A DNA stretch of 64,000 nucleotides from Candidatus Zhuqueibacterota bacterium. GTDB lineage: Bacteria > Zhuqueibacterota > Zhuqueibacteria > Thermofontimicrobiales > Thermofontimicrobiaceae. A model generated the notes under the pieces. The model was not told where the DNA came from. It saw only the letters and a list, made by a program, of their open reading frames with translations, and did not search any database. Below are positions 21,226 to 64,000 of the stretch, piece after piece (the first letter of the stretch is position 1; each line of letters starts with the position of its first letter). The stretch is from assembly GCA_049322915.1 (NCBI GenBank), contig JBMOPW010000021.1:26079-90078 (forward strand). Direction: 5' to 3'. The translations under genes and the position numbers were made by a program.

Positions 21226-24200
21226 TCAAATTCTATCGCCACTTAAAAGATAATTCCCTATTGCAGGAATGTCTTTTTTATAATAATCAATATTCTGAAA
21301 GCTTACATGATTTACTTTCTTTATTTTTTGCATAATACTATTGTTCTTGGACTTCATCACCTGATTGCCTTGTGAATTTCTACTCTCTTTGGGATTTATA
21401 TGAGCCGTATTAAATATCAAAATTTTTTTAATAGAACTTATGGCAACAAGCTCTACATCTTCTTTTAAATGATCTATATATACAATTTTTGAATTATTGT
21501 TATAAGCATTTTTCAATCTTTTTCGTTGCGTTTCGGTCTCATAACTCTTCATAAATATTTTAGCAACTTTCCCATTTTCAAAACCGAATAACATATAACC
21601 AGAAAAATCAGAAGTGCTTGTGATGTAAATTGGTTTTTCATCTTTTTCAAAATTAATTGAATCTAAAATATGTTGTTTACTATAATAAGAATTGTTTGCT
21701 ATTTTATAAACATTATATTTGTCTGTAAAAACTAGAATTTCAGATTGCCTGACATTTTTTGGTTCAATTGCAGCTAGTGGATGAGGCCTATTATTATGCA
21801 GTGTGGCGAAACTTAAATTATTATTATGAGGTTGAGAGTCCTTAGTTGTTTCTTCATGTTCTATATCGTTTTTATCATCGATAATTTTTTCTGTTGTTTG
21901 ATGGTTTGGTTTTGAGTTCAAAATTTTCCAAAGCGGTTCCAGCGCTTTAATTCGATTTGAATAGTATTCTCCACCTTTTATTCTGAAAAATTGCCAGCCA
22001 CATCTTTCTAATACTTTCTGACGCATTAAATCATTTTGAAATTGTTCAGCACCATGCCAAATATCACCATCACATTCGATTGCTATTTTAGTTCCGTCAG
22101 GTAATATTGCCACCAAGTCAACCCGATATTTCCCTTTGGCAACTTCATATTGAGGAATGACTGAATAACTACGGCTAACAATATCATTATATACATCGAC
22201 TTCAAACCAACTTTCAAAAGGAGGTGGTTGTTCTCCCATTTTCTTAACTTTTGGAATTGGTATCAGCCTTTTCCAACCTTCTTGAATATTTTTAAAGTTG
22301 ATAAAATGATCTAAAAGTTTATAGCGTAAGTCATTCGTATTATTAATATCCTCCATTTGAACTGAATGAAACAACCAGATTTGTTCAATTGCCCGACTCA
22401 CAGCAACATTAAATCGACGTTCATCTTCTGGACGTGTAAGTGCACTTCGGTTATGATTATGGGCTGTTACAAGGCTAAGAAAAATGATATCACGTTCATC
22501 ACCTTGAAAGCTAGCTGAATTACCACATACTATTTTTCTTTCTTTAAATTGTTTTTCTCCAATTCGTTGTAATAATAAATTTTCAATTAATGCCCCTTGT
22601 GCATTACCCTGTAAACATATCACTCCAACAGTTTTGTTATCATATCGCTTATCACTTATAAGCTCTGAAAATGTATCAACAATTCTTTCAGCCTCAACTT
22701 TATTTCTAATGTTTTGATATTGACCTTCAACAAAACCATTTTGACAAAAAACATGTTTTAATGGCTCTAATCTATTTTCAGAATATTGTTTTAATGGATA
22801 TAAACCTTTACCGTCAGGTGCATAGAATAACTTATTCGAAAATTCAATAATTTCAGGCATACATCTAAAATGTTCTCTCAAAACTGTTAGTCCTTCACAG
22901 AACAATTTTGCATGGTCAAAAAAGCTAAACGCAATATCAAAGAAATTGGCGAAGGGTATTCCTTTCAAATGTTTATTGATAAAAGGAGCCATTGCGTCCG
23001 CATTTACACCTACATACTCTGGCGAGGTCTGTTTATCATCACCCACAATGATTATATTTTTTGAAATGTAAAGCAAAAAAATGGCGTCAGGACCTAATTG
23101 GCTTGCTTCGTCAATAATCACATAATCGTACATCCCTTGTTCTGGTGATATGGTTTCACTCACTTTGTACAAAGGCATAATCCAGCAAGGAACTGTTGTC
23201 TTACAATGGTCCATCTGATTTTGTGCTTCTTTGCGAAACCTTAACGCTCTTTTTCCTTTACCTGTTTTTCCTATCTTTCTAACTGCTTGCACCCAGGCTT
23301 CTAAATATTGACGTAGTGACCTGTTATTTTGCAAATTGGTTAATACATGAACCCATGCTTTTAGAGAAGCTATTTTTGAAACAAGTTTTTCTTCTCTTTC
23401 ATCATAAGAAAACAGATCTGCCATTAAATCGTTTTCATAACCCTCATCTAATAACTTTTTAATTTCACTTTCTGCATGCTTAAAATGTATTGCTTCGTTT
23501 AAATTGGTAATGTTATTTATATCAAATGTATCGTTTATTATTTCATCAACAAGAATTGGTACATAAGTTTTTAGTTCGTTTTCCAATTTTTTAAAATCAT
23601 CGTATTGCTGTTTCTGAGACTTTAGCTGATCAACTTTTGTTAAAAGTTGCTCAAATTTAAATACATCCAATTCTAAGATGGTTTTCTTAATATCAAGTGC
23701 TATTGGATGAAATTCATCATCAGATAAATAAAAACAAATTCGGTCCTTTCGACTATTGAAATCGTTGTCTAATTTCAGAATGTAATTCCTTTCAACATCT
23801 TCGATGTATTTCTTTATTGTATTACTATTATATCCTTGAATGGTTAAGGATGAATAGATTTGTATTTCAGCCACCAAACTTTTAGCTCTTTTTAAATTAT
23901 CTAAAAGGTCATTCGTATCCAAGCAAAGTTGAGAAAATGCCTCAAAATATTCAAAGTAGTTTTTTGATAAATTTTGTATATTAGCATTCCAAATTTTAGC
24001 CAGGTCTTGAAATACTTGACGTATTCTTATATCTTCAATGACAGATGAAAATTCCCATTTAGTATCACAAGGACTTCCATTAACTATAACAGAATTTTTA
24101 AAATAGAGTTTTTCTTTTATCTCTTTTGGGAGAAACGGTTTCTTCAATTCAAATAATGCACCATCCAGTTTATTACCTGATTTTAAATAATGCAATAATT

Positions 24201-26316
24201 TATTGGCATCATTTTTTAAGGTTATCCAACTTTTGTTCGGTGGATAACGAATTTCTATATTTTTATCTAAAGATTTTAAATCGATTTTTTTTAATATATC
24301 TATTAGCTTTTTTGTATCTTTCAATTTTTGTTCCCAATTGAAATTGCTATTTTGAACATCTTGAATTATCAATGCTTTTTTAGAATGTGTATTCTTCTCA
24401 ATTGAAAGACATATTTCATAAAGAGAATCCAAAAACTCTTTTGTTTTTGAGAAATCGCTACATTTTACAATGTTTAAAGAATTGTAAGAAATATTCTTTT
24501 CAATAATGTATTTTCTAATTTCTACATACTTTTCAAATTCTGAAAAGGTAAAAATCTCGTTTTTATCAGGAATTTTATAATCGAACTTATTACAATCAAT
24601 CTCTTTATAATGTTGTGTTAAGCCAATAAAATTTTCAACCTGTTGAAAGATATCAGAATTTGAAATATTAAAATACTCATCCTTAAACCAATTAAATTTA
24701 ATAGTATCATGCTCAATTTTTTCGGCAATCTGAGTTAACGTCCCTTGATAGTATTTATTTATTTCCAGTTTTCTTGTGTTTTTTTCTTTTATTTTTAGCA
24801 GTTCATTTGTCTTATCAGCTCGCTTTTCTTTTAAAGTAAGCAGTTCTTTTTCAAATCTATCTTTCTCTTTATAATGGTCGGATAGATTAGTATTTGAAAG
24901 TTTATCATTAATTGAGTTTACACTCGTTTCGAGGTCTTGAATCGATGCAGAGTCTCCACTAAGCAAGTTGACAGACAGACTTTTAAAATCATCTGGCAAT
25001 TTTTCTTTTAAAACTTCAAGGGCACGTTTTGTATATGCTGTTATTAAAATTTTCTTCCCATTGGCTAAGAAATGGCAAATAAGATTGGCAATAGTATGTG
25101 ATTTACCCGTTCCAGGAGGACCTTGTACTAATACTTTGTTGTTTCGATTCGCTTTTTTAATAATTTCAATTTGTTCATCATTGTATTTTTTCGGAAAGTA
25201 AATTATATCATTTTTCTTAGAATCTAATGTATCGAAATCACCATTATTATTTGGATTGTACTCATTAAGGTCAATAATATCATTTAATGCTGGGATGTCG
25301 GTTTCATCTGATTTTTCTATGTCGGCAATTATTTTTTCATATAAGGCGGTAAAGCTTCTTGTGTTTCGCTTGCGTAACATTAATGCAGGTGCATAGAAGA
25401 TTGTTGGTCTTTTGGGAGCATCTTTTGGCTTAATTATTTCATCCTTAAAAAGGCCATCTGGACTAAACCTGTCAGCAATTATTTGAATAGTTTCTTTATT
25501 CTGTTTATCAAAGAGACTTGCTGCAATATTTTTCTCGTTGATAAATTCGATTGCTTTTCTTTCAGCTTCAATAATATCATTGGAATTAAATCGTTCAAAT
25601 AGATCAATAATTGAATCAGTTTCGATTTGTATATCATTTGATAAACTTGGTGCAATTGTTGGTCTTACAGGGTCTTCAAAATTTATCTCTACTCTTTGAG
25701 TTAGAATATGTCTACAAATCAATGGTGATTCATCATTTGCTTTAAAATTTAATAAGCCCAATCCCATTAGAAGTTCATATTCTTCACCAAATTGCTGTGA
25801 TTTATTGTTTATTAAAAACAGTTTTTTGTATATCGAATTTACTTCAATATAAGCTTTGTATTGAATTTCATAATTTTTGTATTCTTCCCAATACATTTCT
25901 GAATCTTCAAACCATTTGGTATTAATGTATTCATCAAATTCTTCTTTGATTTTTGGATTATCCACCAAATAGAATTTATTATTATCATCAATAAAAATGT
26001 ATTCATTTAAAATGGGAAATTCCTCTTTATTAAGTAGTGAGTCTTCTACTATCCATTTTTCTAAATTGGGCGGCGGAGGCGGAAATTTTGGTAATTCAGG
26101 CTCTAATGGCTTAGAAATTTTAATCCAATAGTCAGCATCTTTATTGAAATCTTCATCAAGAATACAATCAATTAATTCATTTTTTGGAATATCTGATAAC
26201 CATATTATATCGATATATTGGCTTGGAGCATTAATTATATCTCTTACCGCTTTGCTCCTTATCTTTGAAAATTCTAAAAGATAATTAAATACTTGAAGAT
26301 ACTTTTCTTTTTTCAT
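21226..26316 (-). CDS. SF1 (Upf1/DNA2-like) helicase with C-terminal MTES_1575/Vsr-like nuclease and an extra C-terminal domain; AT-rich insertion, probable defence gene
   Basis: QGPPGTGKS, IIDEASQ, VGDDKQ, EHFRC, FQGDERD and RFNVAVSRA motifs; FESWFE...RVDL...IAIECDG..WH...D..RQ..LER.GW. Far more AT-rich than its neighbours. Confidence 0.88.
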   Translation of the reverse strand: MKKEKYLQVFNYLLEFSKIRSKAVRDIINAPSQYIDIIWLSDIPKNELIDCILDEDFNKDADYWIKISKPLEPELPKFPPPPPNLEKWIVEDSLLNKEEFPILNEYIFIDDNNKFYLVDNPKIKEEFDEYINTKWFEDSEMYWEEYKNYEIQYKAYIEVNSIYKKLFLINNKSQQFGEEYELLMGLGLLNFKANDESPLICRHILTQRVEINFEDPVRPTIAPSLSNDIQIETDSIIDLFERFNSNDIIEAERKAIEFINEKNIAASLFDKQNKETIQIIADRFSPDGLFKDEIIKPKDAPKRPTIFYAPALMLRKRNTRSFTALYEKIIADIEKSDETDIPALNDIIDLNEYNPNNNGDFDTLDSKKNDIIYFPKKYNDEQIEIIKKANRNNKVLVQGPPGTGKSHTIANLICHFLANGKKILITAYTKRALEVLKEKLPDDFKSLSVNLLSGDSASIQDLETSVNSINDKLSNTNLSDHYKEKDRFEKELLTLKEKRADKTNELLKIKEKNTRKLEINKYYQGTLTQIAEKIEHDTIKFNWFKDEYFNISNSDIFQQVENFIGLTQHYKEIDCNKFDYKIPDKNEIFTFSEFEKYVEIRKYIIEKNISYNSLNIVKCSDFSKTKEFLDSLYEICLSIEKNTHSKKALIIQDVQNSNFNWEQKLKDTKKLIDILKKIDLKSLDKNIEIRYPPNKSWITLKNDANKLLHYLKSGNKLDGALFELKKPFLPKEIKEKLYFKNSVIVNGSPCDTKWEFSSVIEDIRIRQVFQDLAKIWNANIQNLSKNYFEYFEAFSQLCLDTNDLLDNLKRAKSLVAEIQIYSSLTIQGYNSNTIKKYIEDVERNYILKLDNDFNSRKDRICFYLSDDEFHPIALDIKKTILELDVFKFEQLLTKVDQLKSQKQQYDDFKKLENELKTYVPILVDEIINDTFDINNITNLNEAIHFKHAESEIKKLLDEGYENDLMADLFSYDEREEKLVSKIASLKAWVHVLTNLQNNRSLRQYLEAWVQAVRKIGKTGKGKRALRFRKEAQNQMDHCKTTVPCWIMPLYKVSETISPEQGMYDYVIIDEASQLGPDAIFLLYISKNIIIVGDDKQTSPEYVGVNADAMAPFINKHLKGIPFANFFDIAFSFFDHAKLFCEGLTVLREHFRCMPEIIEFSNKLFYAPDGKGLYPLKQYSENRLEPLKHVFCQNGFVEGQYQNIRNKVEAERIVDTFSELISDKRYDNKTVGVICLQGNAQGALIENLLLQRIGEKQFKERKIVCGNSASFQGDERDIIFLSLVTAHNHNRSALTRPEDERRFNVAVSRAIEQIWLFHSVQMEDINNTNDLRYKLLDHFINFKNIQEGWKRLIPIPKVKKMGEQPPPFESWFEVDVYNDIVSRSYSVIPQYEVAKGKYRVDLVAILPDGTKIAIECDGDIWHGAEQFQNDLMRQKVLERCGWQFFRIKGGEYYSNRIKALEPLWKILNSKPNHQTTEKIIDDKNDIEHEETTKDSQPHNNNLSFATLHNNRPHPLAAIEPKNVRQSEILVFTDKYNVYKIANNSYYSKQHILDSINFEKDEKPIYITSTSDFSGYMLFGFENGKVAKIFMKSYETETQRKRLKNAYNNNSKIVYIDHLKEDVELVAISSIKKILIFNTAHINPKESRNSQGNQVMKSKNNSIMQKIKKVNHVSFQNIDYYKKDIPAIGNYLLSGDRI

Positions 26317-26564
26317 AGCTGCATCCAATTGTTGAGTTGCATATAAGTTCTTCAATCCTTTTTTGTAGCTTTATTGCAATTAAAACGAAAGAATAATTAT
26401 TTTTTAAACAGAACTTATTGTATAGTTTTTTCAAAACTTACAATTTATATTTATTATTAAGCACCGAACATTTTGTTTGAACCTGCCAGCGGACTGGGCG
26501 ACCGTTGACGGCAGTCTAGTACGTGAAATCAAAGCCCATAATCAGAACAGAATACCGCTCATGA

Positions 26565-37771: not shown

Positions 37772-37844
37772 CGCGGGGTGGAGCAGTTGGTAGCTCGTTG
37801 GGCTCATAACCCAAAGGCCGTAGGTTCGAATCCTACCCCCGCTA
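37772..37844 (+). tRNA. tRNA-Met (CAT), initiator type; CCA not encoded
   Basis: Cloverleaf with acceptor CGCGGGG/CCCCGCT and a 1:72 mismatch. Anticodon stem TTGGG/CCCAA has three G-C pairs, loop CTCATAA; T-loop TTCGAAT. Confidence 0.97.
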
Positions 37845-37857
37845 CTAACTATAAATT

Positions 37858-37892
37858 AAGGGTTTAAATTGAATGATTTGAACCCTTTTTTT
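37858..37892 (+). terminator. Rho-independent terminator after the tRNA
   Basis: AAGGGTTTAAAT-N6-ATTTGAACCCTT followed by a T run. Confidence 0.8.
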
Positions 37893-37951
37893 GTTTATTG
37901 CCTGGATTTTCCAACTCTATTTCCAACCTTTTATTCACAGTTCTCAACAAA

Positions 37952-38176
37952 TTAATGTTTAACTCCGAAATTCCGAATCTCCTCTCGTTGTTTGGTGTTC
38001 ACCCGAAACGATTCCATATACTCAATCACATCAGTATAATTGTACCTGACCGATTTCCCAATTTTAATATAAGGGATTCCTTTGCCCAAAAACCGATAAT
38101 TTCGCAACGTGCTCAAGGCAAATTTTGTGATTTCTGCTACCTGTTTTTCCGTTAGATATTTTACTTCATCATGCAT
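37952..38176 (-). CDS. AlpA/excisionase-like HTH protein
   Basis: YLTEKQVAE....STLRNYR..GKGIPYIKIGKSVRY. Confidence 0.85.
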   Translation of the reverse strand: MHDEVKYLTEKQVAEITKFALSTLRNYRFLGKGIPYIKIGKSVRYNYTDVIEYMESFRVNTKQREEIRNFGVKH

Positions 38177-38253
38177 TGTCTCTGCTCCTGCAAATTATTA
38201 TTTATATCTATTAAAATCATTTTACTCTAATCGAAGCTAAAAAAAGGAATTAT

Positions 38254-38640
38254 TCAATATAGGTGCTGTTTATTTTCTCGTTTAAAATAATCATTCTTCG
38301 TTCTGGCTTTTTGCGGAATATAAATTCGCACAATATCCTCATCTTTTCTTTCTTTTCCCTTATCAATGTTTTTATACAAACCAATCATTTCCAGGGCGAT
38401 TTTAGTCGCTTCAGTTTTTCCCTTTCTGGATTGAGTGATCAAATCTCGCACTAAGTCAATGGCATATTTCTGAATCATTTCACTTGCGGTTTCTTTGAGA
38501 TCATCTCGATATTTCTTTTTTAAATCATAGAAATACTGTTCCGATATGCCGAGTTTAGTCGCTAATTCAATATTGGTTAGTCCTTGTTCATTATTTTCAA
38601 TTGCTTCGATGAATTTATTTTTTGTAATTTTTACCGACAT
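38254..38640 (-). CDS. HTH protein resembling phBC6A51-type small terminase-like proteins
   Basis: LTNIELATKLGISEQYFY HTH; GKTEATKIALEMIG helix; C-terminal VRIYIP strand. Confidence 0.6.
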   Translation of the reverse strand: MSVKITKNKFIEAIENNEQGLTNIELATKLGISEQYFYDLKKKYRDDLKETASEMIQKYAIDLVRDLITQSRKGKTEATKIALEMIGLYKNIDKGKERKDEDIVRIYIPQKARTKNDYFKRENKQHLY

Positions 38641-38687
38641 AATCTGTAATTTCTCTATTATTTTCTAATTCAATGAAATCTTTTTTT

Positions 38688-39737
38688 TTATTCAGCCAAT
38701 TTGAATTTCAACTCATCGATCAGTGATATACAATTTATATTTTCATTTTGGTTAGTGCTAATCATTTCAATTAATAATTTTTCATATTCTTTGTAATAGC
38801 GGCTTGGTTTAGTATTTTTGCCTAATTTTGACCGAATATATTTCATAATTAATTGCATATCATAATTGAATTGTTCGATGATTTGCTCCCTTCCGACTCT
38901 TTTTTCAAGCTGGGCTAATGATAAATCTTGATGCTCTTGCTCTTCAGCCAACTTAAACTTGTAATTTGCAGTAATATTATTCAACATTTCAAAATTTACC
39001 CTGCTATCACTTTTAAGTGCATCGCATAACTTTATGCCATTATATGATTGTGGTATTTTCAAATATTTTCTCATTTGATAAAAGTGATTTAGGTTGCTTT
39101 CAACTCGAATTTCTTCTTTAAAAATCATCGGACTTACATATCTAAGCATTTCTCTATCTTTCTGCATTTCATAAAATTTTAAATAAAAACTGATTCGATC
39201 CCTTAAATGCTTAGTCCGCACATTCCTTGTAAAGCTAATTCCAGTCTTATAATGATTTACATAATAGTTATGATTGACTCGATAATTATAAAGTGCATCC
39301 AAATATTCTTGTGGATTCCTTTCTACTTTTAAATTATTCGTCACATGCAATTTTAAAATCTGACTGTTTAAAAAATCAGATTCTTTGAAGGAAATCGACG
39401 AGGTATTTAAATTTGCCAGCAGCTTTAAGATATTATTTTTATGAATCAAATCGTGATAATCCTCTTTTAATATTTTTGCTGATGTCTCAACTATAATCTT
39501 TTGATTATAGTTACATTCCTTTAATATCAAATTGTTTACGCCAAACGGAAGAAACTCTTTCATTAAAAAGCATTCTTTTTGCTTGATAACTTCCTCACCA
39601 TTTTCAGATGCAGTATGATAGGTTTTTTCAAAATGATTTAAATTAATATCAATAAGACTTTCCATTGGTAATTTTATCTTAATCGAATCGAGCATTAACA
39701 TTTCATTATTAATTCTTGAATCTATGAAGGTATTCAA
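38688..39737 (-). CDS. Putative replication initiator (phage/plasmid gene II/X, Rep_trans-like)
   Basis: MLDSIKI start, SAKIL, LHVT, ISFYLK (YxK) and IRVE motif order. Confidence 0.55.
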   Translation of the reverse strand: MNTFIDSRINNEMLMLDSIKIKLPMESLIDINLNHFEKTYHTASENGEEVIKQKECFLMKEFLPFGVNNLILKECNYNQKIIVETSAKILKEDYHDLIHKNNILKLLANLNTSSISFKESDFLNSQILKLHVTNNLKVERNPQEYLDALYNYRVNHNYYVNHYKTGISFTRNVRTKHLRDRISFYLKFYEMQKDREMLRYVSPMIFKEEIRVESNLNHFYQMRKYLKIPQSYNGIKLCDALKSDSRVNFEMLNNITANYKFKLAEEQEHQDLSLAQLEKRVGREQIIEQFNYDMQLIMKYIRSKLGKNTKPSRYYKEYEKLLIEMISTNQNENINCISLIDELKFKLAE

Positions 39738-39833
39738 ATTGAATCCCTTTTTAACAGTGATACTATTATGTTAAGATTCAATTTCCCGCTCCGTTCCATT
39801 ATGGGATAACCACTTTCCTGATCGATCCACCAC

Positions 39834-40070
39834 TCAATGAATTCCGCCACCCAACTCTCGGAGAACATCTTCTGCAGTAATCTCCGTTTTCTTTGAACGT
39901 TCATCCATCAATCGTTGAATTTCCGATTTGATGTAAGGTTTTGTCAAGTTTTCTGATCCAATCGCCCTTGCCGTACGGTTATTATACCCCGCACGAATCG
40001 CTGCTTTTGTGGCGCACAAGTCCACTAAATACTCTTCACTGAATAGTTTTTGTTTATCTGTTAGTTTCAT
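39834..40070 (-). pseudogene. terS: Terminase small subunit, C-terminally truncated
   Basis: LTDKQKLF.EEYLVDL.ATKAAIRAGY...A..IGSENLTKP.I...ITAEDVLREL; only 78 aa. Confidence 0.85.
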
Positions 40071-40177
40071 TTATCCATCCAAGATTAGAATTAAAACTTT
40101 AAATATTTATTCATTCCATCAGATTCATTCTAAAAATGGTTCACTTAGTTCATATACCTATATTGTGAACCAGTGAA

Positions 40178-41089
40178 CTACTTTTTATACCACAATCCAT
40201 CATCACCCTTGTAGATTAATTTATCTTCAATAAGTCTGTCTATTATTAATTTAAGAGAGCTTTTCCCTTTATCTGATTCCTTTTCAAGTTCTGACCATTT
40301 CATTCCTGTTTTTTGGTCTAATAAATTTAAAATAAGTTCATCAGAATTAGTACGCTGCATCGCATCATATTTGCCAGTGCAGGTCCATTGTAAATTTTCT
40401 TCCAGAGTTAAAATTAATGGTTCCTGACTGGCACATATTTTTCCTGTAAAAGATACCTGCACTTGGTGATTTTCAGTTCCTTTTCGTTTTAGCATTATCG
40501 CTAAATCAATTGCTCCAAATATAGCGCTCGATCCTCGAATTGAATTTCCATTTTCTCCGCCTGATTTTCTGTCGTGATGAACGATAATTATACCCACACC
40601 TGTTTCAGAAGCTACATCTTTTAACATATAAATTGCTTTCGCTGCATCAGCAGAATTTTCATCCGCTTTGTGAAATCGGATGTAAGGATCAAACATCAAT
40701 AATCCAATTTTTTCACGCTTTATTATTTCAGTCAAAGATTTAATATTTCTTTGCTGGTCAAGGAATTTACTGCCAAAATCGATTAAAAAGTCTTCATTTG
40801 GTTCTAATTCCATCTTTTTAATTCTATTTTGAAAAATCGGTGCACCGTCCTCAGCAGAAACAAGGGCGACTTTCTTTTTTGCAGTTTCCATTCCTAAAAA
40901 ACGCGCTCCCTGCGACACCGCTAAACCGATATTTAATTCTAGTAATGATTTTCCGAGTTTCGGACTTCCTGAAATCATTGTCAAACTGCCCTCTGCCAAC
41001 CATCCTTTTATAATCCAGGTAATGTCAGAAGTCTCTTTTAAAACCTGTTTGAGTGGTTGAAAATTCCACACATTACTTACAGTTTTCAT
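40178..41089 (-). CDS. AAA_25 RecA/RepA-like replicative helicase
   Basis: WIIKGWL, GSPKLGKS, SAED, FDP, VHHDRK and RGSSAIFG motifs. Confidence 0.88.
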   Translation of the reverse strand: MKTVSNVWNFQPLKQVLKETSDITWIIKGWLAEGSLTMISGSPKLGKSLLELNIGLAVSQGARFLGMETAKKKVALVSAEDGAPIFQNRIKKMELEPNEDFLIDFGSKFLDQQRNIKSLTEIIKREKIGLLMFDPYIRFHKADENSADAAKAIYMLKDVASETGVGIIIVHHDRKSGGENGNSIRGSSAIFGAIDLAIMLKRKGTENHQVQVSFTGKICASQEPLILTLEENLQWTCTGKYDAMQRTNSDELILNLLDQKTGMKWSELEKESDKGKSSLKLIIDRLIEDKLIYKGDDGLWYKK

Positions 41090-41146
41090 TGTTAAATTTT
41101 TCTATTTTAATGTCTGTATCACTGTATAATTTCATTTTTATTAGTA

Positions 41147-41713
41147 TTATGATTTTAAGATTTGATGTTTTTCAAATATCAAATAATTCAGTTCTGAATC
41201 CAACTGGTTTAACCTCTGATCAGTTTCTTCAATGAAATATCTATATTTTTCTCTTTCATTCTTCATTGTAATTAAAATATCAGTATCAATTTCAATTTTT
41301 TTTTCAATTTCCTTGATTTTCGACTCAAACTGTAACAAATCATAATTTTGATTTTTTACTCGTTTCACAACAAACTCAGGTATCTCCCTTTTCGAATAAT
41401 CCACACGTCTATTTTCATAAACATTATTATTATAAATCTCATATCCAGATATAGCACATAAAAACCGAACCGCTTCTAGAAAAGAATAATGCTTTACCAG
41501 TTGGACCAATTCTATTTTATCACCATGCTGGTTATAAGAATAACAGTAAAACGTATCATCGTTCCACGCAAACGAATTTGGATTATCTCCACCATGGATC
41601 AAACATGCTGATCTTTTATTTCTTAAATTCATTTTTTTAAAATTCAACCGACTCAATAAATCTTCCATCTTCACTGAACTTTTTAACATATCCAATTCCC
41701 ATCGACTATACAT
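41147..41713 (-). CDS. CHC2 zinc-finger (primase N-terminal) protein; fourth Cys replaced by Tyr
   Basis: CLIH...FYCYSY..HGD.IELV......F.EAV..L. Confidence 0.8.
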   Translation of the reverse strand: MYSRWELDMLKSSVKMEDLLSRLNFKKMNLRNKRSACLIHGGDNPNSFAWNDDTFYCYSYNQHGDKIELVQLVKHYSFLEAVRFLCAISGYEIYNNNVYENRRVDYSKREIPEFVVKRVKNQNYDLLQFESKIKEIEKKIEIDTDILITMKNEREKYRYFIEETDQRLNQLDSELNYLIFEKHQILKS

Positions 41714-41751
41714 CGCCGCACCTCTGAAATTTTCTCAATAATTCGCTTCCG

Positions 41752-42018
41752 CTAAAGATTTGTATTGTAGTTTTTTTCATTAAGCACAAAATTATTTAAA
41801 TCTTCTCTTTTAAAATAAATTTTTCTCCCCTGCAATTTATAATATTGAAGAATTCCCTTCGATGTATAACCATATAGAGTATTTCTTGATATTCCGAGAT
41901 ATTCGCTGGCTTCAACTATTGAAAGAAACGGTTTCTCTTCCTTCTCAATCAGTCTTTTAATTTCTGATAGCGCATAATCAAATTCATTCATGTAATCTTT
42001 ATTTTCATCTGTTTTCAT
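41752..42018 (-). CDS. Excisionase-family HTH protein (HTH_17)
   Basis: FLSIVEASEYLGISRNTLYGYTSKGIL.YYK..GRKIYFKREDL. Confidence 0.88.
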   Translation of the reverse strand: MKTDENKDYMNEFDYALSEIKRLIEKEEKPFLSIVEASEYLGISRNTLYGYTSKGILQYYKLQGRKIYFKREDLNNFVLNEKNYNTNL

Positions 42019-42125
42019 AAAAAAAATCCCCATTGTAATAAATACAAACAACAATTAGCTGTTGGTATAATATACAACGGGGATTAAAAAAATATAAACA
42101 ATATTAACGTTAATATTCTGTTTTT

Positions 42126-42962
42126 TTAACTATTTTTATGTTTATGCCATAAAAACCTCATATCTTCTTCTGTCAAATCTATAATTTTTTTGTCATTCTT
42201 AAGATATCTCAAATGATTATTCAACCAATTAACCAATGTATATTCACTAATGTCATATTTTTGAACTATATTGTTCAAAATCCCATTGTAATTTAAGTTT
42301 GTTTTTCCGTTTCTCAATTTTTCCAGCATTTGGGCAAAATATAATAATTTTTCCAAATCAGTTTGTGAAGTCGGTCTGTGCTGAGGTCTTTTTTTGGTAG
42401 CTTTATCGACCTCATTTATTTTCTTGTCAAGCGCTTTAATCCTTTCCAATATTTTACTTTTAAAATTGCCATACATTTGTCTTGTATAATTATTTCCATA
42501 GAGTTCTGATTGAATTCTAAATTCTTTGTATACATATCTTAAATAAATCAACTGATTGTAAATCGATCCTATTTCTTTCGAATGCTCTTTAATTTTATTT
42601 AAATCATAATCAAATAATTCCCATTCTCTAAAATATATTTTCAAAACAGATGAATTGAATATTTCATTTATCCAAATTTCATCAGCAATAGAATCACCAT
42701 CTTCATGTTTTGGCTTCTTTGTTTTTCCAGATAGCCCGATAATGTATTCCCAATAATCCTTTTCCAATGTTACTAACAATCGGAGATTGATTCCAGGTAT
42801 TTCGAGAAACTTTGAATGTTGTTCATCATATTTTTTTATTTGATCTTTGTAAAAATCAATTCTGTCCTCAATCCCATTTATTTCATTACCATATTTTCTA
42901 AGCTTTTCAAATCCTTCAACAGTAAACTCAAATTCTGGATAAATATTTTCCGAGTCGCTCAC
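42126..42962 (-). CDS. Hypothetical protein (possible C-terminal HTH)
   Basis: 278 aa ORF with GGAG RBS and GTG start; weak internal duplication; no family recognised. Confidence 0.6.
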   Translation of the reverse strand: MSDSENIYPEFEFTVEGFEKLRKYGNEINGIEDRIDFYKDQIKKYDEQHSKFLEIPGINLRLLVTLEKDYWEYIIGLSGKTKKPKHEDGDSIADEIWINEIFNSSVLKIYFREWELFDYDLNKIKEHSKEIGSIYNQLIYLRYVYKEFRIQSELYGNNYTRQMYGNFKSKILERIKALDKKINEVDKATKKRPQHRPTSQTDLEKLLYFAQMLEKLRNGKTNLNYNGILNNIVQKYDISEYTLVNWLNNHLRYLKNDKKIIDLTEEDMRFLWHKHKNS

Positions 42963-55447: not shown

Positions 55448-57229
55448 TTATAAAATGCGTTTTTTTGCTAATTCATCTTTTAATATATTTGATTTTGGAC
55501 ACTCTTTTACAATATCCCATAATTGTAGCCATTCTTCTTTTTGCCAACAAGGATATGCATCTACTTTGATAAGTGAAATCAAGAAATCAAGGAATTCATC
55601 AGTTTCTCGATGTGCAAACTTTACTTTTGTAAGGTCATCAGCAAAAGTACCAACATGTTCAATCTTTTCTGGCGAAAAATCTATAGCTAATCTAACAGCC
55701 TTCTTAAAAATGCCATAGGAAAAGGGAATTAATCGCCAGAAATCAATTCTTAAATCATTTCCGTCTGGTAAACTGAAAAAACCTTGTTGTGTTGACCATT
55801 TCCAATAAGGCAAAAGCACTTGCTGCCAAATCTGCTCAGCTAATGCCGCATTTGCATTTTTAAGTTTATCTTCCCAAGCATCTATTAATAATCTTCTCCC
55901 ATTTTGATCGATTAAGCTTGATATTAGATAAAGATTTTCAAGTTTTGTTTTCTGCACCCAAAAAATATAAGCATTATGATAAATAAACCCGTTTCTTACT
56001 TGTTCATTGAATTGATCATATTGATTTACTATCTTCAAATAAGTATCATCGTATAGCTTAATAATCTCTTTTGATAATACGTTACTCCAAAGGTAACCTG
56101 TCCATGCCAAAAGATTTTGTTCAGTTACTTCTTCTGATAGAAAAAGCGGTAATAGTTTGTTAATAGTCCACTCAGGTTCAACCGCTTCAAACCAACTTAG
56201 GTATTGCGTGGTGAGACAAAGTCCGTAACGAGAACCTTTGTTATAATTATTGATGATATATTCAAAAAAATCTAATAGATTCCAAGGAATTACTAAATGT
56301 TCCTCGTTCTTTCTCTTTTCATTAACGATTTTCATTGCATATTTTAAATAAATTTGAGTCATTGTACCAAAAGGATGATTAAGAGCATCTGTCATCCAAT
56401 CCGTTCTTGAATTTATCCCCCTCCTATCAAAATCAAAGTCTGTAAATATATCACGACACAATTTATAAAATTCAGGCCAATCATCAGGATTTTTATCACG
56501 AATATCGTACCATCTTTCGAGGAGTGTTGGTATACTATGCCAGAATTTGCCTTCTGGGCGGCTTTTCATTAATACCGCTAATATCTCAATAAACTCTTCT
56601 ATTTGGCTATTTTCCCATTTGATCTCTTTTTTTTCTAAATCTGGTCTCAAATCCCAAATGATAGGATTCATAATATCATCAGGAAAATCTTTTAATTTTG
56701 ATTTGATTTTATTAAATAATGTTTTACAGAAGTTGAAGTCATTAGAACATCGATATCCAACTCTTCCCGCATATTCATATAAATCATGACTGGAAACATT
56801 TTTTAATTGTAGCAGAAAATCAAGAATCTCATCTGGATTCATTGAGTTAATATCTTTATCCTGTGATAGCCCATATTTGTATTCTGTTTTATTTTTTTTA
56901 AAATTTTCTTTCTTCCATTCTGGGTGTCTTTTTAGTATATCTTGAAATTTCAGTTCGGACTCATTTGGGATTTTATATTTTGCAGCCTTTAATTCACTTA
57001 ATGTGTCATAGATTATATACTCATAAAATTCATCAGTTTCTTTTTCTTCAGTACCAACTTCAATTTCCTTTGATAATCCTAAGTTGATTTTAGAAAGAAG
57101 CTTTTCTCTTAATTCAGGATATCTTTCAAACGCTTGTTTAAAGAGTTCTTTTGCTTCTTGATGAGTTTCTAAATCCCAGAAAAGATTATCTGTGAATAAT
57201 ATATCTATTATCTCTTGTTTATTTAACAT
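55448..57229 (-). CDS. Helical protein resembling the C-terminal half (DUF4020-like) of DSR1-type sirtuin defence proteins
   Basis: W...T..E, DWMTDALNHPFG, WT...LLPLF and AW.GYLW patterns; overlaps the SIR2 ORF by 11 nt. Confidence 0.65.
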   Translation of the reverse strand: MLNKQEIIDILFTDNLFWDLETHQEAKELFKQAFERYPELREKLLSKINLGLSKEIEVGTEEKETDEFYEYIIYDTLSELKAAKYKIPNESELKFQDILKRHPEWKKENFKKNKTEYKYGLSQDKDINSMNPDEILDFLLQLKNVSSHDLYEYAGRVGYRCSNDFNFCKTLFNKIKSKLKDFPDDIMNPIIWDLRPDLEKKEIKWENSQIEEFIEILAVLMKSRPEGKFWHSIPTLLERWYDIRDKNPDDWPEFYKLCRDIFTDFDFDRRGINSRTDWMTDALNHPFGTMTQIYLKYAMKIVNEKRKNEEHLVIPWNLLDFFEYIINNYNKGSRYGLCLTTQYLSWFEAVEPEWTINKLLPLFLSEEVTEQNLLAWTGYLWSNVLSKEIIKLYDDTYLKIVNQYDQFNEQVRNGFIYHNAYIFWVQKTKLENLYLISSLIDQNGRRLLIDAWEDKLKNANAALAEQIWQQVLLPYWKWSTQQGFFSLPDGNDLRIDFWRLIPFSYGIFKKAVRLAIDFSPEKIEHVGTFADDLTKVKFAHRETDEFLDFLISLIKVDAYPCWQKEEWLQLWDIVKECPKSNILKDELAKKRIL

Positions 57230-59120
57230 AACCGCCTTCTATCAGTTTTTTCAAAGCAAAAATACTAAGTCGCTTAAAGTATGGATCCTTAATTTGCTGC
57301 CACATTTGATAAACTAAAATTGCTTTTTCTACATTCAGTTCTATTAGGATTTTCCATACTTCTACAATGGTGTCTATAACAAGATCAATTGCAGTATGGG
57401 AATAAGTTTCGCCGACTTCAATATTAGGCCTTCTGATGTAAGTATACGATCGTGGTTTAAAACGTTCTAGAGTAATCTGAAAGTCTCTTAATTTGTTTGT
57501 CAGATGAACAAGAAGTTGATATCCCAATCTTGTGACATTTGGCTTGAAAAATCGTTCATAGTATTCTTTGAAATAGTAATCCTGCATTTGTCCAATATAT
57601 TCTACTTCTGCTTCAATTTTAGATGTTATCTCTTTATCATCACCTGTTTCTTCTGCATAGATTGATTCAAATGACCTTCTAATTTTAATTTCAACTTTCA
57701 AAATTGAGATAAGTAGCCATATAGCATCATCATAAAGATTAAATTCAATTAGTAGCTTAAAGAAATTTTCCATTCTATGAAAATAAAGAGCATTTTTATT
57801 ATTTTGAATAGAAACTTTGAATAGCTCTACTATTTTCCTCAAATCGTATTTCATAATATTTAAATTGTCTTTATCTAATAGCCTGGAAAATGTATCGAAT
57901 AAAATTGGATGCATAGTTTCATGAAAGGGAGATAATTTTAAAATCCATTTATCAACATCGCTTATAATAAATCCAATTATCTTTTCTGCTAAGAAATAGT
58001 CAAGTTCTTTTAAATTCTCATGTTGTTTTAGTATATTTTCTAAATAGCCTCGGCTAAGAAATATATCAAACCAACCTTCATGCAAATCAAATTGTGCAAA
58101 ATCACGTAGTAATTCTGGAGTTTTGAAATATAGTAACGCACGTGTATATTTATCATTAGGTAGTTCGGTCGGATTACTTTTTGCAATTTCTGATAACACA
58201 TTTCGACGATCGATAAATCCCCTTCTATTATCTTCTCCCCATGCAACAAGAGTTCTCTCTAAGGCTCTATGGTCTATCTTTCTTTTAATTTTTTTAATTG
58301 GATAAAAAATTGGATAAACACCACGACGTCTCCAATCTAACTCAATCTCATTAATATTATCTTCTTTAGGAATCAACGCCCACTTCGGTTTAATATCTTT
58401 CGCACCTTGCGATTTTGAGCCTTCAAGTGCAAGTGATAAGTATCTTAAAGGGGGATCGTTTAAGCTGTATCCAATGAATAAGATAGCGTAGTGCTTAAAT
58501 AACTCGTGTGCAAATTTTAAAGCCCATCCTTCATCCATATAGGCTCTGCCAATATCTTTATCAGATAATATCATTTCTTCTGGATTTGAAACATGTCCAT
58601 GTAAATAGCCTATCCCCTTAAATCTTATGGCTGGTGGAAAGGAGGGTGCTTCATGAATTACCCATTTTTCATTGTTTAAATATTCCGATTCATCAATAGC
58701 ACGATTTAATAAGTTATCAAAATTTGTCGTTATAATCCGTGGTGTTGATTCTCTTGGGAAAAGATTTACTATTGCTTTGTGTAGTACTATTCGCTTTCGT
58801 TGCTCATCTTTACTTAGTATTTCAGCAGCAGTTTGATGAATAGGCTTATGTTGATCGTTCCATATTCCTAAAACTTGATCGTACAATTTTCTATTAAATA
58901 GTTTTTTTTCATTATCATTAGTTTTTATAGCCAGCTTTTCTTGAATTTGATTGCATAGTTCTTTAAATGTTGGATAAAAAGTATTGGGTCTTTGTTGTGG
59001 ATCAGCTCTTGTAGAAATCCCAGCTCCAACAAAAATGACGAGTTCATCCTTCGATAAAGCATTTATCAAATCAATTGGCAAGCCAACATTATCTTCTGTG
59101 TAAGTAACGGTGTTTAGCAT
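57219..59120 (-). CDS. SIR2-domain NADase, DSR1-like N-terminal half
   Basis: LVIFVGAGIS, IITTNFD, YLHG, D.GRAY..EGWA..F and LFIGYSLNDP motifs. Confidence 0.88.
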   Translation of the reverse strand: MLNTVTYTEDNVGLPIDLINALSKDELVIFVGAGISTRADPQQRPNTFYPTFKELCNQIQEKLAIKTNDNEKKLFNRKLYDQVLGIWNDQHKPIHQTAAEILSKDEQRKRIVLHKAIVNLFPRESTPRIITTNFDNLLNRAIDESEYLNNEKWVIHEAPSFPPAIRFKGIGYLHGHVSNPEEMILSDKDIGRAYMDEGWALKFAHELFKHYAILFIGYSLNDPPLRYLSLALEGSKSQGAKDIKPKWALIPKEDNINEIELDWRRRGVYPIFYPIKKIKRKIDHRALERTLVAWGEDNRRGFIDRRNVLSEIAKSNPTELPNDKYTRALLYFKTPELLRDFAQFDLHEGWFDIFLSRGYLENILKQHENLKELDYFLAEKIIGFIISDVDKWILKLSPFHETMHPILFDTFSRLLDKDNLNIMKYDLRKIVELFKVSIQNNKNALYFHRMENFFKLLIEFNLYDDAIWLLISILKVEIKIRRSFESIYAEETGDDKEITSKIEAEVEYIGQMQDYYFKEYYERFFKPNVTRLGYQLLVHLTNKLRDFQITLERFKPRSYTYIRRPNIEVGETYSHTAIDLVIDTIVEVWKILIELNVEKAILVYQMWQQIKDPYFKRLSIFALKKLIEGGYVK

Positions 59121-59761
59121 TGTTTTTTCAGTAAGTTAAACTGCAAAATATTTTTTTAATTGAATTTAGTGATACTTTTCACCATAATTATTTTTCTACC
59201 TCTTTTACTATAATAATAAATACTTTTGTAACATCTTCAAAAGAGAAATAACAAAGAAAAAAATGTTGTGGTTCCAATTTTTTTTAAAAGGAAAAAGTAC
59301 AAAATGTCTATTATAAATGCCAATAAGGTAACAATTTTTTCAAACATATCCGCAGGGAAAGTATAAGTAGGTTTATAAATTGCATGTTATCAGGAATTAA
59401 ATGTATATTGTTTTTACTAAATAATAATAATACAATGAGATTATAACCAGGAAGAATAGGTATGAAAAAAAGAGTATATCTAATAGCTTTATCAAACAAT
59501 CCGATCAATTAATAATTTATAAGAAATATACTAAAATGAAATTATGAATTCAACAAATAAATATTAGTGTTTTGCAATATATTATTATATTACCGTAACA
59601 AATTAATTATAGTTCTCATATTTAAATTACGGTTTTTCAAAATTCAATATATTTCAATTCAATTTTATCATTTCAAATTTAAGCTTGATTTTTTAACTCA
59701 TATTGGTTAACTTTTGTACAGTAATTCAATAAGGTATTTAAAATCACAACGGAGAGAAAAC

Positions 59762-59983
59762 ATGGATTGCAAAAACGGCTTCCACAGAATAAGAGTTGTT
59801 AAGGACCGCGGCGATATCTATTATACCATTTGCGTGAACTGTGGAGAGAGAAAATCATGGAAAAGAAATCTGAACGCCATTGAAGACCTTGCATGGATTA
59901 AAAATTTGAAAGCCAAATCAGGCTATACAAAAATCCCTTTGCTTGGCATGAATTATTACAGGGACACACCAGCCGCCAATTAA
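59762..59983 (+). CDS. Small basic Zn-ribbon-like protein (73 aa)
   Basis: GGAGAG RBS; C-x4-H...CxxC (MDCKNGFH...ICVNCG). Confidence 0.6.
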   Translation: MDCKNGFHRIRVVKDRGDIYYTICVNCGERKSWKRNLNAIEDLAWIKNLKAKSGYTKIPLLGMNYYRDTPAAN

Positions 59984-60014
59984 AACATAGTTGCCTGAAA
60001 TCTGTAAAATAAAG

Positions 60015-60618
60015 CAACCAGCGGCATCATTCAAAAAAACAGCAGGAAGCCGAGCACGTGAGAAACGTTTTTTTGATTCATGCCTTAGTACATCACCTGA
60101 CCTTTTATGCAGATTGTCACTGTAGGAACAAAAACATCCTATTGCATAGCATGTTTTTGTCTTATTCCATTGTATAACTATCGGGATATTCCTGGCGCGT
60201 TTACCAACATAAGGATCAAAACGATCCCCATCAGCCTGACAGTTATCCGAAGTGCAGAGAACCAACCAGCGGCATCATTCAGAAAAACAGCAGGAAGCCA
60301 AGCGAGAAGAATCGTTTTTCAGAATCATGCCTTGGCACAATATCAAACAAAGGTGCACATTATTACTGAAGGATTAAAAACATAAAGCTGTAAAAAGCAC
60401 AGCTTAATGTTTTTATCTTTCTGAATCAGATTTCTTTCAGGTGAAGTAAATTTTAAAAAAGGAAGACAAATAAAAACCGACCATACGCCACGAGAACGCT
60501 AACCTCTTTTTGGTCATTCGGTAAAACAGGAAAGCAACACATCTTCCAGGAACGCTCCAGCCTGCTCAGAAAAACAGCGCGAAGCCCAGCAGGTGAGAAT
60601 GTTTTCCTGCATCAGGCT
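60015..60618. repeat. Three dispersed ~60 nt hairpin repeats plus two secondary hairpins (structured non-coding region)
   Basis: A1 60023-60084, A2 60271-60331 and A3 60559-60618 share a loop (AACAGC..GAAGCC.AGC...AGAA). B1 60128-60160 and B2 60375-60415 share an AAAAACAT/ATGTTTTT stem. Confidence 0.85.
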
Positions 60619-60909
60619 TCCGCGTCCTTCCAGATGTTATCGGGAATGGATACAACTCAAAATCAGCCAACACCAACCATCCGCGCATTATGGAACGTGA
60701 GGAGAAGAAATTACGCTCATCATCGTTCGGCGGCAATAAGGTGGCCTCCCAACAACCCAGCATCCCAACCCAACAGGTCTTTCCGCTCCCAACACAACCC
60801 CACACAACCCATCGCTCTACCCGCCCTCAGTCCCGCCGCCTCTCGTTGTTTCGCTGCATTTCTTTAATGTCCATTTATAACGTGACGTTATATCATTTAT
60901 TAGTAATTT

Positions 60910-63875
60910 TTATGATGAATTTTTGATATAACTTATGACACCTGCTTCTTTATTAATTATATTCAATTCAAAGTTTTCAATAATTTTGATATGGACTTTT
61001 TGAAGCAAATTTCTTGTAGCATCTTCATCAGATAATAAAGTCCCATCCTTATCTTTCTTTAACTCAACATTTGTTTTAATAAATTCGATTGCCATCTCTT
61101 TGGTGACGGATTTAATAAACATGTCGAATTTTTTATTAAAAAACTTATCACTAATAAATTGTTTCATGTTGCAATAATTTTTAAGATTGAAAACACCGAT
61201 AGTATTTTCATATTCATAACTTAAAAATATTGGTGTATTTTCTAATAATCCGATTTGTTCACGAAATTTAGGTTTTGGTGACATTTTCCAATTAGGAATG
61301 AATAAATGAGAATTAGCTAATTTTTTATGGTACGACCATTCATGTGGTATAAATATAATATTAGGCGAAAATTCATTTTTCTTTTTAAATAAATCAATCA
61401 GTTCAAGTATACTTTCAAGGATAGGAGGATTTTCCAAATTGTTATTTATATCTTTATGTACTGATGCATATTTAAATAATTCACTAAATATTCTTACATT
61501 TTCATAATTGCCAATTCCCTGTCCATAAGCTTGACCCCATCCGCTAAAAGAGTCGTCATTATCAACAAAAGCACCTTTTACATCTAATTGATTAAAACCA
61601 AACCATTCACTTTTTAGTTTTTCACCATTATAAGGAATTTCTTCATAATTTGAATAGCTTGATAATATATAATGTCCAATACAGTTATTTTCCCATGAAT
61701 TTTTGAAGTTACTCTTAAAATCTTCAATTTTTATTTTACTCAATTCTTTTTCGATCAATTTATTTTCTTTTAGTAAATCATGTCTTTCTAGTAATTTTTT
61801 ATTAAATGAAAGAAATTGATCTATTCGATTTTCAATGTCCGTTTTATCTGTTTCACTTGATCTAATTTCATTGCCTGATATCTTATTAGCTTTTTTTACG
61901 GCGATTATTTCAGCCCATTGATATAAATTTTCCTTAATTTGAGTACATATATGTTCAATTCTTTCGTATCTAAATTCTGAAAATGATTTCGATTCTTGGA
62001 TTTTATCGAAATTATCAGGAAATTTACCGATTGAAATTCCTTTAATACAGTAATACCAAGGTAGCCAACTATCAGAAGAAATTGGAGTATAAGTTTTACC
62101 TTCAGGTGGTTCGTCTAACTCAAAATTTCTCCAATTAAATCCATAATTCCTATCTTCAGATATAGCAGTCGAATATAAATTTGTCAATTCAATGATATTT
62201 TCAAATGCACCATTAGAAATTGAATAAAATTGAATTAAGTGCCCTTTTTGAAGGTGTTTTGGATGATCTTTATTAATTTGATATAAAAAAATCATCCATG
62301 AATTGATAGCAAATGAAATATATTTTTTATCTTCGTGCTTTTTATTGACTATATCCTTCGTTGTTTTGATTTTATTCAGCTCATTTTCAATATTAGTAAT
62401 ATCATTATTGTTCTCTTTTGCTTCATTTAACTTCAGTTTAAGTTCAAATTCTTTATTATCATAATAGTGATAATTACGATCCAAGTATTTGAAAAAATCC
62501 ATTAATTCATTATATGCATGTTCAAAGAACTTAAAGTCTTTATTCTCGATTGACATTATAAGATATGTTTGAAAAACTAAATAAATTTCTAATGTATATT
62601 TATTTAGTTCGATAATTCGAGAATCATTTTCAGATTTTTCAAATTCTTTTTGCAACCTAAATTGCACAAATTCTTTTAACCATCCAACGCATCTATCTTT
62701 TATAAACTCCGTTTGAATTTGCTCATCTTGATGAACTACTTTAGAGTATATATAAGGATAAAAGTATAATAATCTTGAGAATGTAAAAATAACATTTGAT
62801 TGAAATGAAAGCAAAATAATTCTTAAAGGGAAATATCCAACTTCAGTAAAAATTTCTTGCATACCTGTTCGCAATGTTTCATCGATGATATGGTATAAAT
62901 CTCGTACTATTTTCTCATAGGGCTTCCAATTATTGAATAGACCTTGAGTATTATTCAGTAATTGAAATATTTTCATCTCTTCAATAAAAGATGATATTAC
63001 TGAATAATAAATATTCAAATAATCATCCAGCTCTTCTGGATTTCTATTATTTATAATATTTCGTATCGCAACCTTAAATTCATCAAATTCACTCTCATCA
63101 AAAGAAAAAGGTTCTGTTTTTTTTACTTTGAATGAGTGATTTAATAATCGAATAATTTTTTTAACTGGAAGATCCTTTGGTGCAGCTAATATATTTCGAT
63201 CAGAAATATAATCACCTATAGCAAAACTATTTAATCTTACTCTTTTCAATTCATTTGTGTCGTGATTGAGATAACGATTTATTTTTGCAAGCTTTTTAAT
63301 ATTGATATCATAGATATATCCCCTTTTTTTTATTGAATAATCTTTAATATCATCACTCTTTGAATTTAATCCAAATAAGTAGCCACTCTCTACATCATAC
63401 TCCTTAAAATAATCATTAAAAATATTTTGACTAAGACGTTTATTTACTTCATATTCAATTGCTTGTTTACTCTGTTTAATTATCCATTTTATTCTTTGGT
63501 CTTTAAGATAATCTGTACTCAAAATTTTGTACACAATATGATAAAACCATCCAATGCCCAAAATAGTTATTGTAAAGGATAGGCTTAATATAATTAGACA
63601 TTTTTCAAAATAATCATTTTGGTTGAATAAAATTATATATGCTGGGATAAGTAGGTTGATTAAGGAAAAGATTATTATGGGGTATAAATAGGATACCCTA
63701 AAAAAAAGAAAAAAAATGTTCTGACTACTAATCTTTTGTCCAATGGAATTCATCAAAAATAGTACAACTGTAATTGCAATCGCTAAAATGGCGGCATATA
63801 TTTCCCATAAAGTTGTAAGATTGGATAATAAGTTATCATTATTAAATGAAATATTTTTATGCAGAAAATTTGAAA
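60910..63875 (-). CDS. Large membrane protein (DUF2254-like TM region, helical middle, putative HK97-fold C-terminus); 5' end cut off by an IS
   Basis: Three TM segments near the N-terminus. The ORF-track start (63963) lies inside IS sequence, so native coding resumes at 63875. Confidence 0.7.
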
Positions 63876-64000
63876 TGTCAAGGGCAATCATATTCCCCAC
63901 TAGCGGGGCAAACATATTCCCCACCTGCACAGGTGGTTTAGCGTTAATATAAAAAGCCTGCAAATTAGAGTCAAGCGTTTTGCAATTTGGGCTTAAATTT
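63876..64000. mobile_element. IS21-family terminal inverted repeat; element continues beyond the window
   Basis: Begins TGTCAAGGGCAATCATATTCCCCAC-TAGCG-GGGCAAACATATTCCCCAC: a 5'-TG end with tandem ~19 bp transposase-binding repeats typical of IS21 ends. Confidence 0.75.

Follow-up and report, generated by a model that had tools for sequence, protein, structure and literature searches.

Several kinds of repeated or loop-bearing hairpin have been described in bacterial and phage genomes. REP/BIME elements are intergenic imperfect palindromes, often clustered, that can act as terminators or RNA stabilisers, and REP are present in many copies genome-wide. Sites of the attC/CALIN type (integron attC sites, and clusters of them that lack an integrase) form imperfect hairpins, roughly 60 nt long, in which one unpaired position is conserved; they lie in one orientation beside diverse small cargo and have a stem of low sequence but high structural conservation. 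LhrC1-5 of Listeria and PrrF1/2 of Pseudomonas are tandem small regulatory RNA families with their own terminators, and lambda nut boxB and HK022 put are phage antitermination sites followed by terminators. A covarying stem with a fixed loop is also the usual look of single-strand origins.

Here we analyse hairpins, named A and B, in a 64,000-nt stretch of contig JBMOPW010000021.1 (hereafter the window) from a Candidatus Zhuqueibacterota bacterium. They belong to a rare family of non-coding units, each made of two hairpins, that had not been described before; these units adjoin swappable cargo genes in AT-rich mobile islands. The A/B hairpins have the features of REP/BIME named above, but the genome of 6.25 Mb contains the unit at a single locus, apart from one degenerate copy. 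Neither BLAST nor a covariance model (R1, built from the three window copies A1-A3) showed the dispersal expected of REP, the degenerate copy (on contig C2) scoring 23 bits. Hairpin A shares all the listed features of attC/CALIN sites; however, its conserved part is the loop and not foot boxes. The foot of A reads GGCAT/ATGCC or variants thereof, and an AAC/GTT pair is present solely at the loop end of the stem. Further unlike attC/CALIN, the integrase match is below the cut-off, A sites do not seem to bound every gene, and gene homology does not seem to break off at the sites.

Like LhrC1-5 and PrrF1/2, the A/B units are diverged head-to-tail copies in which a stem-loop exposing a conserved motif is followed by a T-tailed hairpin, a likeness in arrangement. 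They differ in that the motif is purine-rich rather than C/U-rich, in belonging to a mobile-island module with a C-rich end, and in being known from DNA alone. With lambda nut boxB and HK022 put they share a small hairpin with a purine-rich, GAAGAA-like loop upstream of terminators (here the terminator-like B) on a mobile element, but the loop here has 26 nt and there is no downstream gene on the same strand to profit from read-through.

The first-pass annotation had not recognised the region as CRISPR, attC, a type III antitoxin or a retron, and these exclusions hold: the array is neither CRISPR nor classical attC, no reverse transcriptase is adjacent, and no Rfam family is present. A CRISPR array was rejected since similarity among the copies is 61-93%, their spacing is 248 and 287 nt, and the intervening DNA is itself repeated (linker and B). 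A retron msr-msd was rejected because Pfam found no reverse transcriptase domain in 23 ORFs of the window and 47 ORFs of related loci. For a ToxI-like type III toxin-antitoxin RNA, the candidate was dropped as the units are 250-290 nt long and the flanking 73-aa and 1017-aa ORFs belong to no family; beyond the 73-aa ORF the next gene is SIR2, and the neighbours vary by locus. Rfam 15 returned only chance matches to animal RNA families, far below gathering scores, for window positions 57000-64000 (E <= 5), and one chance match for five related loci (E <= 1), so that no family was matched.

A discrete module of two alternating hairpins

Direct reading of the sequence, a repeat finder and single folds agree on three A and two B hairpins where the first-pass annotation had placed them (Table 1), with B starting 44 nt after A in both A1-B1 and A2-B2. 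Its term dispersed array is better replaced by a diverged tandem triplication with a unit of about 250-290 bp (start-to-start distances 248 and 287). According to the repeat finder, A1 and A2 are 93% alike over 44 nt and A3 is 61-71% like either, while A1-B1 and A2-B2 form a tandem duplication (80-93% alike). The G+C content is about 41% over positions 60001-61000, versus 26-33% in the surrounding AT-rich stretch.

Table 1. Positions of the module, its parts and associated pieces in related loci (window coordinates unless a locus is named).
Feature	Position	Strand	Remarks
Whole module (promoter-like site, 73-aa ORF, A/B array, C-rich tail)	59683-60862	+	Bounded by relatives
Promoter-like site (TGTACA, 18 nt, TAAAAT)	59715-59744	+	9/12 consensus matches; weak hint
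73-aa ORF, near-orphan	59762-59983	+	Cys3, His8, Cys24, Cys27; possible zinc knuckle
Hairpin A1	60023-60084	+	Repeat finder, single fold (z -2.2); 84.3 bits with R1
Hairpin B1	60128-60160	+	A-tract, stem-loop, T-tract; terminator-like; -14.7 kcal/mol, z -4.6
Hairpin A2	60271-60331	+	Repeat finder, single fold (z -3.5); 85.8 bits with R1
Hairpin B2	60375-60415	+	Terminator-like, both strands; -22.4 kcal/mol, z -6.7
Hairpin A3	60559-60618	+	72.3 bits with R1; outer stem replaced; without B 3' of A3
C-rich, G-poor conserved element ending the module	60690-60862	+	Recurs in the genome, G001, G019, L165, L176
A 5' halves fused to radC-like fragments	L164 1628-1843; L174 (oriented) 6411-6523; L163; L165 1516-1734; L166 3950-4121		Four junction variants
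Piece upstream of cargo gene starts	L174 (oriented) 2742-2909, 5765-5878; L164 1140-1253, 2227-2389; L161, L158, L173, L180		

The limits of the module are given by relatives. In contigs from four metagenome runs, similarity to the window is confined to 59683/59702-60862, and several different flanks follow on both sides; we conclude that ORF, array and tail form a discrete module of about 1.18 kb. Promoter-like sites in the region and arrays (window, L165, L164) are not more numerous than in shuffled sequences.

The 73-aa ORF matched no Pfam, PHROG or PADLOC family and has one homologue (93% identity) among 5.8 billion proteins. It is kept beside the array in metagenome contigs of close relatives only. 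The partnership between hairpins and ORF that the first-pass annotation had considered is thus not borne out, given this one relative and the absence of the ORF from other hairpin loci, and we rejected the ORF as a partner of the family on account of its single homologue. Judged from these sequence searches, its link to the array is local to this lineage.

In A3 the outer stem is AGCCTG/CAGGCT in place of GGCAT/ATGCC, as described before, with the register shifted by one base, and one inner pair changes from A-T to G-C between A1 and A2. The symmetric mismatch reported right after CAT was found by reading the sequence as C:C in A1, A2 and B1 and as A:A in B2; across 32 A copies this position is unpaired in 19, mostly as C:C, and paired in 11. 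The motif GCGAAGC is present as reported, in A3 only, but its reading as an unusually stable mini-hairpin is a one-copy coincidence, since other family members carry GCANGAAGC at that position.

Single-hairpin folds of A1, A2, B1 and B2 are compared with chance in Table 1. For A3 the single fold is weak (z -1.4), and a different structure is favoured: the lowest-energy fold pairs the loop GAAGCC with a GGCTTC just 3' of the stem. Such a GGCTTC beside the stem, able to pair with the loop, is found in A3 and in last-position copies of other loci, and this modelled pairing would fit a switchable RNA.

Stems covary around an almost invariant loop

Hairpin A consists of a stem of 17-18 bp, usually with one C:C mismatch, and an almost invariant, purine-rich loop of 26 nt, which reads as two AGCNNGAAG copies. 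The loop is constant (AGCANGAAGCCNAGCNNGAAGAA) while the stems differ. When the 32 A copies were aligned to the reference, standard pairs filled 84.1% of the stem cells, versus 41-53% with the partner column slid. Both sides vary in 11 of the 18 stem pairs, and 65 cells with double changes were observed versus 28.8 in shuffles, none of 500 shuffles reaching 65. Relatedness among copies can inflate such counts, but the slid controls keep the relatedness and score far lower. The covariation of the stems, which had been noticed from the window copies, is thereby confirmed. Certain stems recur, namely TCGG/CCGA, GATGG/CCATC and A7/T7 among the inner and GGCAT/ATGCC versus GGCTT/AAGCC among the outer types.

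The proposal that selection acts on the hairpin rather than on a protein was also supported: A copies are 59-65 nt long, their lengths do not change in steps of three, and no reading frame is common to them. A profile of the neighbouring radC-like proteins found no match in ordinary units. Besides these lengths and the lack of a radC match, we rejected a protein-coding A because a seven-codon mini-ORF in the 3' arm is absent from A1 and A2. Symmetric half-sites of a DNA-binding dimer could also give rise to covariation, without formation of a hairpin.

The A-linker-B unit and its possible transcription

The unit of about 150 nt comprises A, a semi-conserved linker of about 44 nt, and B, itself made of an A-tract, a stem-loop and a T-rich tail. 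Units are arranged in tandem on one strand, with the C-rich tail at the end of the array. The consensus fold of 14 A-linker-B units has -35.9 kcal/mol and 39 pairs, of which 14 are compensatory, including seven in the inner stem of B. While this inner stem covaries, the base of B (AAAAACAT/ATGTTTTT) and its tail (GTCTTATT) are fixed in the 14 units. All 14 have an A-run 5' of B and TGTTTTTGTCTTATT 3' of it, part of which pairs with the A-run.

We tentatively prefer a reading in which the units are small RNAs transcribed rightwards, or 3' untranslated RNA, with A displaying the fixed loop and B acting as terminator. Transcription would run rightwards through the module, in the window probably from the promoter-like site ahead of the 73-aa ORF. 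Each A would offer its single-stranded loop for contact in trans with a protein or with a nucleic acid of complementary sequence, and the B hairpins would stop transcription before it ran antisense into the convergent neighbouring gene. The C-rich, G-poor tail may serve as a Rho loading site and help to stop transcription. What the sequences demonstrate is the hairpins with their covarying stems and fixed loop, the layout of the unit, the separateness of the module and its position next to variable cargo in AT-rich islands; that the units are RNA, which strand is transcribed, that B terminates and that a partner exists is what we infer.

The plus strand is supported by the base of B, which contains a G-U pair on this strand in 14 of 14 units that would be an A-C mismatch on the other, by the tail, which is more T-rich on that side, and by the module limits, which include a plus-strand ORF with a promoter-like site. 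In favour of the minus strand, the 32 A copies contain 28 A-C versus 12 G-T mismatches, and A1-A3 fold slightly better on that strand; the wobble counts thus favour different strands in the alignment of A (32 copies) and in that of the units (14).

A simple terminator scan called B2 on both strands, and B1 and the B copies of L165 and L164 were not called. The call of B2 favours the RNA reading; the uncalled B copies and the chance level of promoter-like sites inside the arrays tell against it, and no RNA run contains the stretch. The behaviour of B2, together with the position of arrays between transcription units, their variable copy number and their many degenerate copies, would suit a module of hairpins and terminators that passively blocks transcription from both sides, between convergent or neighbouring cargo units, and acts without a specific partner. 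Under that explanation the module was duplicated and eroded by slippage, the loop being conserved only through the youth of the copies. We hold it to be distinctly unlikely, both as to the barrier and as to the youth of the copies: the loop stays fixed while the stem was replaced several times, across metagenome sources and two genera, which is not expected from neutral decay of young copies, and an invariant loop of 26 nt is superfluous for a barrier.

The C-rich element consists of four fixed blocks with variable C/A linkers and has GGG tracts on the other strand. Its homology with all relatives stops sharply near 60862. The element lies 3' of the arrays in L165 (5283-5595) and L176, and it occurs also at L010 and L011. 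A second one in the source genome (contig C2, 38257-38402) is located behind one diverged A-like and one B-like hairpin. G001 has the element and a 20.6-bit A-like match at the same locus, G019 the element without hairpins; altogether, 3 of the 125 class genomes carry it. Six sequences of the element gave a weak consensus structure on either strand (about -5 kcal/mol).

Distribution of the hairpin family

R1 scores A1-A3 at 72-86 bits and independent copies elsewhere at up to 71 bits. In the source genome only the three window copies reached 72-86 bits, the next match being the one on contig C2. G007, which belongs to another genus of the same family, was the sole R1-positive genome among 151 relatives, with two matches of 65.8 and 35.1 bits placed 236 nt apart. 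The hairpins are thereby present in 2 of 14 genomes of the taxonomic family and in 2 of 151 genomes of an even sample of the phylum.

A degenerate loop pattern retrieved 23 metagenome contigs, mostly shorter than 8 kb. Full-length R1 matches (E <= 1e-4) were obtained in 17 of them, often two to four per contig; two pairs of these contigs are near duplicates. In species-representative genomes the bare loop motif occurs in 120 stretches, and none of the 100 searched with R1 contained the hairpin; these matches of the motif are due to chance. No DNA resembling the region was found in E. coli genomes, phage records or plasmid records, and no viral contig matched two loop patterns.

AT-rich islands in the source genome

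The AT-rich island of the window starts right after a tRNA-Met gene (37772-37845) and extends to the end of the contig. A repeat of the 3' end of tRNA-Met, as a mark of integration, was not found within the window. On the minus strand, the gap holding the array is flanked by a 1017-aa ORF (60910-63963) without family and by the SIR2 and 593-aa genes. The SIR2 gene product (633 aa) and the adjacent 593-aa ORF (together 55448-59120, minus strand) match the N- and C-terminal parts of the defence protein DSR1, respectively, indicating a split DSR1. Besides this pair, the island carries a type III restriction system, a Schlafen-like protein, AbiEi and a UvrD/nuclease pair, and other genes encode an excisionase-like protein, a CHC2 zinc-finger primase fragment and an AAA_25 helicase. 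No integrase was recognised in the start region of the island (37772-42962), where a 349-aa ORF (38688-39737) has no family. This same region contains a satellite-like set of genes, namely those for the helicase, the primase zinc finger, the excisionase-like protein and a small helix-turn-helix protein faintly like terminase small subunits. Elsewhere in the window (21226-26355), a second AT-rich insert (27-33% G+C) encodes a single protein of 1709 aa with superfamily-1 helicase and MTES_1575-type nuclease domains.

The second locus of the genome (contig C2, 37000-46500, L181) is a 9-kb AT-rich island between DegT aminotransferase and SpoIIE genes. It carries genes for a large serine recombinase, a MerR-like protein, an MmeI-like restriction-modification enzyme and a SocA/Panacea pair, and the diverged hairpin with its C-rich module lies near one end. 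A helix-turn-helix protein common to both islands was considered and rejected, as the two proteins are not alike.

The gene content of the window island bears on the suggestion that A could be a single-stranded DNA signal in replication or transfer of the island, whether as a priming site for the primase of the island, as a single-strand origin or as a transfer origin whose nick site lies in or beside the hairpin. The primase fragment, the helicase and the excisionase-like protein would agree with such a role, as would the single orientation of all copies in a locus and the combination of covarying stem and fixed loop. A radC-like gene accompanies many arrays, and radC-like genes are often found in transfer-leading regions. 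Several A copies are moreover followed by TTAGTGCGC, which we take to resemble the nick region of some mobilisation origins. Against this, the 18-bp stem is too short for a -35 and a -10 box and contains no promoter-like site; the sequence 3' of hairpin A is far more variable than the loop (14 units); neither the window nor the related loci yielded a recognisable relaxase or rolling-circle replication protein; and the second locus sits in an island with a serine recombinase and no primase. On balance we regard a role of this kind as very unlikely.

Cargo genes and signs of rearrangement

The genes beside the metagenome arrays are very diverse and include a ThsA/ThsB pair, split DSR1, methyltransferases, SnoaL-like proteins, a LOG-like protein and beta-lactamase folds, among others. 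Given this diversity, the special tie to the flanking defence genes that the first-pass annotation had considered is not supported. Of 51 neighbouring ORFs (>= 100 aa) picked, 47 were scanned with Pfam; they contained no conserved partner gene and no recombinase except one DDE transposase (L158). All A copies within a locus have one orientation. By our reading of a mechanical ORF table, 15 loci have an ORF of at least 90 aa to the left of the array; in 14 of them, all but L159, this ORF is antisense to A and its start is 71-903 nt away from the leftmost copy.

Several copies of A bear signs of breakage and rejoining. Chimeric copies combine the 5' arm of one stem type with the 3' arm of another. 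Common to L170 and L165 is a half-site that breaks off directly 3' of GAAGCC and continues into one and the same A-rich sequence. The 5' halves of A are also fused, at HNHPSG codons, to 3' fragments of a radC-like JAB gene (Table 1), with several partial radC copies per contig, all on the hairpin strand; near the array in the source genome no radC fragment was found. The chimeric copies and cut half-sites look, from their sequences, like products of DNA recombination, which would count against the RNA reading.

We considered that A is a DNA-level recombination site, folded or double-stranded, through which cargo is gained, lost and swapped, the arrays being scars of repeated events. We rate this as possible but rather unlikely, and the same holds for the form it might take, an integron-like or att-like system without the classical integron integrase. 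The extreme diversity of the cargo, almost always on the strand opposite to A, fits it. So do the placement of genes between A sites, with three A sites punctuating three gene blocks in L170 and the ThsA/ThsB pair lying between two A sites in L165, and the different flanks of the relatives of the window's module. The rearranged copies described above can be counted in its favour as well; however, their junctions fall at different points of A with no single crossover point, and unequal crossing-over within a tandem array also yields chimeras. The split-DSR1 pair is 87.8% identical over 3681 nt between the window and L170, and this likeness stops at the gene ends, not at the hairpins. Adjoining genes are in many cases not separated by an A; L180 has a single A for its four genes. 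Apart from the DDE transposase the scanned neighbours held no recombinase, and the integron integrase profile TIGR02249 reached at best 79 bits versus a cut-off of 265 in the source genome, which is 96% complete and in which the island runs off the contig. Finally, the foot of the hairpin lacks the attC boxes RYYYAAC/GTTRRRY.

A bolder version, which we consider unlikely, would make the A hairpins the sites of an undescribed, integrase-independent platform for gene exchange on mobile islands of this uncultured lineage. The folded DNA with its fixed loop would then serve as crossover or nick region, cargo headed by promoters (including split DSR1 and Thoeris) would be shuffled, and the radC-like gene, which is repeatedly broken at its catalytic motif, would be either a target or the enzyme.

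If the units are RNAs, as in the reading that we tentatively prefer, they represent a new family on mobile islands beside defence cargo, and the exposed 26-nt motif should lead to a partner. If they are DNA sites, they mark an assembly of defence and accessory genes without known integron machinery. Either way, the covariance model can help to locate such hot spots of cargo in metagenomic data, in which most of the flanking genes lack annotation.

Further small insertions and a recurrent non-coding piece were observed in the related loci. In L159, L172, L161, L164 and L138 a palindromic insert of about 17 nt (CCTGCCCTCGAAGGGGG-like) separates ACGGC from the 5' arm of A, and it is also found inside the radC reading frame of L174 (oriented, ~3075-3095); it has the look of a footprint. 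L174 further carries, in the interval from B to the following A (oriented, ~6140-6250), an insert of about 100 nt bounded by an inverted repeat (AGGGAGTGGGATAA / TTATCCCACTCCCT). L164 lacks this insert, which resembles a miniature transposable element. In L166 (2620-2720) a radC-like gene is interrupted by about 40 nt between direct duplications of about 31 nt. Just upstream of many unrelated cargo gene starts, also at places without A, there is a conserved non-coding piece of about 110-170 nt (Table 1). Its end towards the gene reads TATAAA/TATAAT, which makes it a candidate portable promoter.
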